DNA of 5,729 bases from a virus (lineage: Duplodnaviria > Heunggongvirae > Uroviricota > Caudoviricetes), in the IMG/VR virus record IMGVR_UViG_2703718772_000022, one strand, 5' to 3'. A program made the position numbers and the translations under genes. Of this stretch, positions 2,413 through 2,454 are shown one piece after another; positions within the stretch are counted from its first letter, which is position 1, and each line of letters starts with the position of its first letter. The notes under the pieces were generated by a model that was given only the letters and a program-made list of their open reading frames with translations, did no database searches and was not told the DNA's origin.

Positions 2413-2454
2413 AGAAATAGAAATAGAAATAGAAATAGAAATAGAAATAGAAAT
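2413..2454. repeat. Perfect hexanucleotide microsatellite (AGAAAT)x7, 42 bp
   Basis: Seven uninterrupted copies read directly from the sequence. It lies in the AT-rich island about 235 bp upstream of the first cargo gene. The minus-strand ORF 2274..2513 with a poly-FL stretch is just its translation. Confidence 0.95.

Follow-up and report, generated by a model that had tools for sequence, protein, structure and literature searches.

The perfect hexanucleotide tract at 2413 to 2454 of the window (the whole 5,729-nt stretch of DNA analysed) is the established VNTR-9 locus, very probably a selectively neutral, slippage-prone microsatellite, lying in the scar of an insertion sequence (IS). The repeat is not new, being already known as a marker used worldwide for two decades to fingerprint outbreaks of EHEC. 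The main value of the analysis is therefore a correction: what seemed to be a phase-variation switch is a long-used typing marker and not a discovery. We add two small new points, namely that the repeat originated in an IS and that the published reverse primers depend on an adjacent IS30.

Direct reading of the window gave exactly seven AGAAAT units without interruption, flanked on the left by ...CACAACAAAC and on the right by ATTAAAACAG:

2413 to 2454, no strand assigned: perfect (AGAAAT)x7 microsatellite, equated with VNTR-9 / O157-9 / TR1 / Vhec4 from its sequence, TRF, shuffles and primer matches.

TRF reported an array at 2409-2455 with a period of 6 and 7.8 copies of AAATAG (97% matches, score 87), which was the top-scoring tandem repeat of the whole window. 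A three-unit AGAAAT probe matched five times in register in the window and not once in 200 dinucleotide-preserving shuffles, so that (AGAAAT)x7 is far beyond chance. Across 430 kb of related prophage DNA, a search for perfect repeats with a unit of 4-9 nt and at least four copies returned one other, with the unit TGGCTC. The tract lies about 185 bp inward of the left edge of a low-GC island, 188 bp from its end to a TTGACG motif at 2642 and 316 bp from its end to the TTG start of a downstream gene. The sequence-only reading had described a perfect (AGAAAT)x7 at an island edge, about 190 bp upstream of a candidate promoter; the repeat was confirmed by direct reading, TRF and shuffling, the edge location agrees with a tract some 185 bp inside the island, and the distance is right if TTGACG is taken as the -35 element.

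The window is a piece of lambdoid prophage, namely its nin-Q region, in which the minus strand encodes Q, a Ser/Thr phosphatase, ninG, an HNH/AP2 endonuclease (1648-2214) and ninE (5046-5228). Ordinary lambdoid backbone homology ends at 2227 and restarts at 4921, the left boundary falling at a conserved ninF/ninG junction segment (2186-2227). Between these points lies a low-GC insertion (approximately 2228-4920) of about 30-39% GC, compared with 43-53% outside. Here ninE adjoins xis-int, and the immunity and replication region has been lost. The tract sits in non-coding junk between the endonuclease gene and a gene for a 590-aa protein, with the repeat 199 bp upstream of the endonuclease start on the minus strand:

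1648 to 2214, minus strand: HNH (HNH_3 + AP2) endonuclease gene, with 14 nt between its start codon and the IS remnant.
2771 to 4542, plus strand: single gene for a 590-aa protein (phrog_9230) whose TTG start codon is preceded by an AGGAGG motif, a pseudogene here.

The ORFs at 2744-3676 and 3715-4542 match the two halves of one 590-residue PHROGs family, phrog_9230, and in the Stx1 phages AU6Stx1 and SH2026Stx1, as in most genomes, the region is one 1,773-bp gene. In the window one G of the GG pair at 3664/3665 has been lost, splitting the gene into 2771-3676 and 3715-4542. Among hits sampled at even spacing, this frameshifted allele was common to the O111:H8, O111:H- and O111:NM genomes. The 'cargo operon' proposed from the sequence alone thus dissolved into one 590-aa gene split by a 1-bp deletion.

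Sequence, flanks and primer sites together identify the tract with the MLVA locus known as VNTR-9, O157-9, TR1 or Vhec4. TR1 has been published with the unit AAATAG and the forward primer ACTGCATGATAAGCCTCAGG (PMC2246123, Table 2), and AAATAG, which is also the TRF consensus, is a rotation of AGAAAT. Vhec4, TR1 and O157-9 are listed as synonyms (PMC3768571, Table 1), the names deriving from Lindstedt 2003, Noller 2003 and Keys 2005, respectively. The same locus appears as VNTR-9 with PulseNet primers (PMC3321953, Table 1 and Table A1) and also belongs to a 17-locus EHEC scheme tabulated for O157 (PMC10062581). Both forward primers have exact matches in the window, where none is expected by chance:

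2317 to 2336, plus strand: TR1 forward primer site ACTGCATGATAAGCCTCAGG, 0 mismatches, sequence from PMC2246123 Table 2.
2199 to 2225, plus strand: PulseNet VNTR-9 forward primer site GCGCTGGTTTAGCCATCGCCTTCTTCC, 0 mismatches, overlapping the start of the HNH gene.

Neither published reverse primer matched the window with up to 3 mismatches allowed, because both lie in an IS30 that is absent here. O157:H7 strain SS17 has the same tract behind a nearly identical left flank, with an IS30 inserted 15 nt further on (following window position 2469), and this IS30 contains both reverse primers, the PulseNet primer having been located by search and the TR1 primer being visible in the sequence. In silico, amplicons of the published primers on O157:H7 did not fall at any other place. 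Sequence L002 shows the left IS30 junction, and L007 the right one, where AC is duplicated:

2468 to 2469, no strand assigned: AC dinucleotide, the IS30 insertion point in O157:H7, 15 nt to the right of the tract.

Strain SMN197SH3 carries the other IS30 half, with the duplicated AC and the 590-aa gene, elsewhere and without the tract. The two forms have in common the left flank, the tract and the next 15 nt, so that the absence of the reverse-primer sites is a polymorphism in the flank of one locus and does not point to another locus. Compared with VNTR-9 of O157:H7, the left flank of the window is 99.2% identical over 256 nt including both forward primers, and the 6-bp unit, the prophage context (HNH-ninG-phosphatase-Q) and the allele range are likewise shared. 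From these comparisons the window carries the IS30-free form of VNTR-9, found in non-O157 strains of the O111/O26 type, in contrast to the O157:H7 form with IS30. Strains of this ancestral IS30-free arrangement, such as the one represented by the window, are not amplifiable with the published primers, and a window-type allele would be typed as 'null'. Null alleles at VNTR-9 have been reported at 31.7% (PMC3321953), and the IS30-dependent reverse primers may contribute to this high rate.

The tract was variable in length across genomes. We found the left flank in 524 of 5,426 complete E. coli genomes (245 with the window arrangement and 281 with the IS30 arrangement), and spans of the alignments relative to the query differed by multiples of 6 bp. 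As most genome copy numbers were inferred from such spans, the window-type form has 6-18 and 23 units by this measure and the O157:H7 form 9-16. A further 8 genome or phage alleles and 31 IMG/VR alleles were read directly. The former comprised 6 units in 2014C-3051, 7 in E2863 and in Stx1 phage AU6Stx1, 8 in AMSHJX01, 9 in SS17, 12 in ECO2947, 17 in phage SH2026Stx1 and 23 in 7_15_5C, and all of these tracts were perfect. Two odd span lengths were traced to a 1-nt difference in a nearby A-run that left the tract itself unaffected. An independent scan of IMG/VR found 31 contigs with 4-16 units, five of them with variant units; in L043 the variant unit GGAAAT occurs three times in tandem, a mark of slippage. 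A prophage of E. albertii has a perfect six-unit AAATAG array despite flanks that have diverged by 3-18%. In all, the tract ranged from 4 to 23 units over E. albertii, the IMG/VR contigs, the Stx1 phages and the complete E. coli genomes. This agrees with the literature, in which VNTR-9 has 6-23 repeats, 15 alleles and a diversity index of 0.90, the highest of eight loci (PMC3321953), and Vhec4 gained single-unit insertions in serial passage at approximately 4e-5 per generation (PMC3777172). The expectation of a hypervariable tract was thus borne out by whole-unit changes between 4 and 23 units, as well as by the published alleles and passage changes, and the comparison of copy number across genomes that had been proposed as a check found differing lengths where identical ones would have spoken against any phase-variable role. 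Length variability does not by itself show phase variation.

Variation was independent of the neighbouring gene. In O157:H7 the gene is gone from the site through the IS30 insertion, and the tract still has its 9-16 units. Among O111 genomes with an identical dead allele of the gene, the tract has 7 units in E2863, 7-32 9A and 2009C-3675 and 13 in 99.1145, which indicates that it kept changing after the gene had died. At the paralogous locus of E. albertii and at the cdd-sanA locus of Salmonella, the upstream DNA is unrelated and has no repeat. Taken together, these comparisons argue against a functional link between tract and gene. We infer that whole 6-bp units are gained and lost by slipped-strand mispairing during replication, and that these changes are selectively neutral.

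The origin of the repeat can be traced to the DNA around it. A distant-mode search with the left flank gave unexpected matches to IS911 in phages Sf6 and SfII, and blastn and tblastn searches against the Sf6 copy together with a DNA alignment delimited a decayed IS3-family element. Its recognisable parts are the left terminal inverted repeat (IRL), an orfA pseudogene that has lost its start and contains an in-frame stop, about the first 32 codons of orfB and a right end resembling IRR:

2228 to 2630 (ends approximate), plus strand: decayed IS3-family (IS911-like) element with the repeat inside.
2240 to 2263, plus strand: IRL-interior segment, corresponding to IS911 nt 10-33 of the Sf6 copy, 24/24 identical.
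2268 to 2595, plus strand: remnant of the orfA middle and 3' end and the orfB start, 68.7% DNA identity to IS911 nt 155-457 (blastn E 3e-34).
2584 to 2633, plus strand: IRR-like right end, 76% identity to IS911 nt 1199-1249 (E 2e-5).

Immediately after 2263 the element lacks some 120 bp of IS911, nt 34-154, and with them the start of orfA. The plus-strand translation of the remnant reads AMDVGISTIPRWRK*LHDKPQGK...IEIHELKKKPQQT(EI)7LKQTTTFLMSYSLNN, and is 49-51% identical to OrfA residues 24-98 (tblastn E 1e-16, or 7e-22 without composition correction). Of orfB, residues 16-47 are left (E 7e-7), and IS911 nt 458-1198, about 740 bp, is missing. Both terminal inverted repeats are recognisable, with the outermost ~12 nt degenerate at both ends. 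As regards a 3-bp target-site duplication, this decay allows only an approximate placement of the ends, and the triplets flanking the best-guess positions, ctc and gtt, differ. Compared with IS911, the element is non-functional, with a double deletion, an in-frame stop and DNA identities of 69-76%, and it is to be regarded as a dead remnant and not as an active or autonomous IS. A search of plasmids for a closer intact ancestor returned IS911-family copies at only ~69%; the best intact relatives are 69-75% identical, and the immediate ancestor is not among them. Its position puts the element at the left edge of the low-GC island inserted into the nin region of lambdoid prophages and Stx1 phages. 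The suggestion that the tract marks a hypervariable junction left by an insertion was therefore essentially right, since the tract lies in an IS scar at the edge of the inserted island.

Within this remnant, the (EI)n stretch aligns with 'RIEMENEIL' in the leucine-zipper region of OrfA. The IS911 codons here are ATT GAA ATG GAG AAT GAA ATA TTA (I-E-M-E-N-E-I-L), and those of the window are (GAA ATA)n TTA. An imperfect period of 6 nt is already present in the IS911 stretch, which closes with GAAATA-TTAAAA as does the window, differing from it in having one GAAATA with two imperfect neighbours compared with the 4-23 perfect units of the window locus. The repeat was probably born by expansion of these hexamer-periodic codons in the dead orfA, and the position of the tract on the I-E-M-E-N-E-I-L codons explains both its unit sequence and its location. 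The literature searched contained no mention of an IS origin of the VNTR-9 repeat. As a repeat derived from transposase leucine-zipper codons in an IS911-like scar, VNTR-9 provides a concrete example of the birth of a bacterial VNTR.

This origin also bears on whether the tract could be coding on the opposite strand, either as (IS)n in a minus-strand ORF at 2365-2523 or as (LF)n in another at 2274-2513, giving a peptide of variable size whose frame would be kept as units came and went. Both ORFs are open in the window, and PGAP calls the (IS)n frame a 'hypothetical protein' in sequences with long tracts, for example L005 (2666-2920, 84 aa). These calls are made only where the tract is long, which makes the ORF a product of a stop-free repeat, and a still recognisable transposase pseudogene runs along the opposite strand. 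No Shine-Dalgarno sequence precedes either ATG, the (LF)n ORF has no Pfam or PHROG match, and a 1-nt change in an A-run makes the ORF 'frameshifted' in ECO2947. In O157:H7, the IS30 at 2469 removes both start codons and the tract survives. We rejected a coding repeat in these antisense ORFs on the long-tract-only calls, the lack of Shine-Dalgarno sequences and the loss of the starts in O157:H7, and consider it extremely improbable.

An alternative closer to the sequence-only reading is that the tract is a contingency element for the 590-aa gene, in which the number of units alters how far, or at what helical phase, an upstream site stands from the promoter, or else changes the local DNA structure or the loading of H-NS, and so switches or grades expression. 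The homologues of the 590-aa protein, found in E. coli, E. albertii, Salmonella and Providencia, are all annotated as 'hypothetical protein', and the E. albertii paralogue (71% identical) adjoins nleF and an AvrPphF-ORF2-like gene. The host range and the paralogue beside nleF suggest that the 590-aa protein could be a type III effector. Sequence searches gave no Pfam, NCBIfam or PDB relative of the protein, and in PHROGs it matched families of 'unknown function' alone. An AlphaFold2 model from a 20-sequence alignment had a mean pLDDT of 39 and was unusable, and a literature search on the EDL933 ORF names Z3935/Z3936 yielded nothing beyond an MLVA table.

In favour of a contingency element, the tract is truly hypermutable, both from the genome alleles and in passage (PMC3777172), and it lies upstream of the gene in the same orientation. 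A conserved block downstream holds a candidate promoter, the block beginning 165 bp and its TTGACG motif 188 bp from the tract:

2619 to 2676, plus strand: 58-nt block with candidate promoter (TTGACG at 2642-2647; TGTAAT/TAATAA at 2663-2670), 100% identical between E. coli and E. albertii.

Over the next 100 nt, identity between E. coli and E. albertii drops to 70-75%, so that a promoter in the block is plausible, though it would be 165 bp from the tract. Distal repeats do modulate promoters elsewhere, examples being the TAAA tract that precedes nadA of Neisseria meningitidis and the 7-bp repeats in front of hmw1A and hmw2A of Haemophilus influenzae. Against this, the tract is neither in a -35/-10 spacer nor in an intact ORF, being 188 bp from the candidate -35 element and 316 bp from the start codon. 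A consensus promoter scan of 2150-5100 found no promoter-like site on the plus strand between 2150 and 3146, TTGACG...TAATAA scoring below threshold, and the one feature that it showed near the tract was a weak minus-strand terminator-like hairpin at 2358-2342. The tract is equally variable where the gene has been removed (O157:H7) or inactivated (O111), the paralogues of the gene are without the repeat, the allele spectrum of 4-23 units is broad and continuous and not ON/OFF-like, and the tract is already accounted for by its origin in a dead transposase. As regards a repeat that alters a product or promoter, the unit here is 6 bp and no intact sense ORF contains it; as regards lasting linkage to a gene, O157:H7 has the tract without the gene and SMN197SH3 the gene without the tract. 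We consider a contingency element improbable. The proposal that copy number shifts regulatory spacing was not upheld, given that the scan found no plus-strand promoter-like site nearby and that variation persists without the gene, and a regulatory or phase-variable role is unsupported. Bending by A-tracts was dropped by reasoning alone, a 6-bp period being out of phase with the ~10.5-bp helical repeat.

A graded form of the same idea, in which tract length acts as a 'tuning knob' on the 590-aa gene or on HNH-ninG-Q read-through in phages such as AU6Stx1 and SH2026Stx1, is somewhat less probable again. Tuning would proceed through DNA spacing, H-NS loading or an (A-R-N)n stretch of RNA that binds Hfq, and if it were true, a marker in routine use for typing would be informative about phenotype as well.

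The tract might alternatively act as RNA. The distal face of Hfq binds A-R-N motifs, and the plus-strand (AGAAAU)n is a perfect (A-R-N)2n of this type, while the minus strand would be U-rich in the early-right (nin-Q) transcript of the phage; tract length could then tune stability, translation or Q read-through. The sequence pattern itself speaks for this, as does the position of the tract, which separates ninE from HNH-ninG-Q on a strand that in intact relatives such as AU6Stx1 is read from pR. On the other side, an Rfam scan of the whole window gave no match, the IS911 left-end promoter region has been deleted (nt 34-154) and no plus-strand promoter-like site precedes the tract. As the window is a prophage remnant lacking the immunity and replication region, pR-driven transcription is unavailable in it, and with ninE beside xis-int the question of a part in early phage transcription does not arise for it. 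Free variation of the tract leaves no argument from conservation. An RNA-level element thus seems very remote, and neutral slippage in an IS scar is the explanation that we retain.

The locus can be compared with O157-10 (TR2, Vhec1), which is likewise a perfect hexanucleotide VNTR of EHEC, with the unit TGGCTC (PMC2246123), and has a reported mutation rate about 10-fold above that of VNTR-9 (PMC3777172). In O157:H7 SS17 it lies ~1.3 kb from VNTR-9 (L002 position 7610, 7 units), and it has 23 units in L027. Unlike VNTR-9, O157-10 is covered by a gene annotated as hypothetical (L002 7514-8704) and is absent from the window. The simple-sequence contingency loci include the TAAA repeats of nadA in Neisseria and the 7-bp repeats of hmw and TA repeats of hif in Haemophilus. 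Like these, VNTR-9 is a hypermutable short repeat that changes by slippage of whole units upstream of a horizontally acquired gene of a pathogen. It differs from them in lying outside a core promoter or intact ORF, in remaining variable where the downstream gene is missing and in having originated within an IS pseudogene.

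In O157:H7, an IS30 has inserted 15 nt beyond the right end of the typing locus VNTR-9, the AGAAAT array (seven units in the window), at a position equivalent to window 2468-2469, with a 2-bp duplication (AC). The two halves of the element are seen at two loci:

L002 (the O157:H7 SS17 locus), 6270-7085: region with the left half
L007 (the SMN197SH3 locus), 2157-2996: region with the right half

In SS17 the left half stays with VNTR-9; in SMN197SH3 the right half is found with the gene for the 590-aa cargo protein, adjoining tail-fibre genes. That the halves now occupy different genomic places implies a rearrangement mediated by IS30. 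The O157:H7 IS30 holds the two published reverse primers for VNTR-9, and their placement inside the element may contribute to the frequent 'null alleles' at this locus. In O157:H7, a mere 1.3 kb or so separates VNTR-9 from a second perfect hexanucleotide VNTR, the MLVA locus TR2/O157-10 (TGGCTC). This second VNTR has 7 units in SS17 (L002, 7610) and 23 units at locus L027 (8585). It is overlaid by an annotated hypothetical gene in SS17 (L002, 7514-8704) and is absent from the window.

Both the HNH endonuclease gene and the IS911-like remnant that holds VNTR-9 abut a 42-nt segment over the HNH start (window 2186-2227). In many lambdoid and P22-like phages, including HK544, SfI and BTP1, the ninF/ninG (or ninE/ninX) junction matches this segment at 97.6% identity. 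The segment has the look of a conserved sequence at a module boundary. Tandem Repeats Finder also reported a 20-bp unit present twice (window 2156-2196; 80% matches, score 52) within the HNH endonuclease gene, in the 5' part of its coding sequence. At the other end of the remnant, comparison of E. coli with E. albertii showed a conserved feature:

Window 2619-2676: 58-nt block covering the right end of the IS remnant and the TTGACG/TGTAAT motifs

The two species are 100% identical across this block and just 70-75% identical over the next 100 nt, a pattern that may be the footprint of a real promoter of the 590-aa gene.

The window was 100% identical to E. coli E2863 (L001) across 1-1452 and 1455-5729. 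Between these, 2 nt (1453-1454) replace 214 nt of ninG (L001, 5042-5255), leaving a truncated gene whose ORF (1425-1733) retains the N-terminal part only. The full-length ninG segment was present in all 15 of the best-matching complete genomes, as two aligned pieces spanning 533 nt. Further to the right, the gene order was as follows:

Window 5046-5729 and L001 8847-10902: ninE, a 114-aa hypothetical gene (phrog_1229), xis, int, yfaT/yfaA

Since the phrog_1229 gene directly follows ninE, and xis and int then adjoin yfaT/yfaA, the immunity and replication region is missing from this prophage, which is therefore a defective remnant.

The cargo gene itself (2771-4542, + strand) is split into two ORFs in the window through loss of one G at 3664-3665 (ATAACAGTTCGG, compared to ATAACAGGTTCGG in the Stx1 phage AU6Stx1). 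In an evenly spaced sample of matches, all two-ORF genomes with a serotype label were O111:H8, O111:H- or O111:NM. Searches of Pfam, NCBIfam and PDB sequences found no known domain in the 590-aa protein (phrog_9230), in which 'LTLNDFLD' motifs recur at the N-terminus and the central part is helical and hydrophobic; its AlphaFold2 model (pLDDT 39) was too poor for a fold search. Hosts of its homologues (P0001-P0100) were only E. coli, E. albertii, Salmonella and Providencia. The Salmonella homologue is longer (680 aa), its gene flanked by cdd and a DUF218 gene (PF02698), and a 71% identical paralogue in E. albertii adjoins nleF and an AvrPphF-ORF2-like gene. We regard the 590-aa protein as a candidate uncharacterised type III effector.
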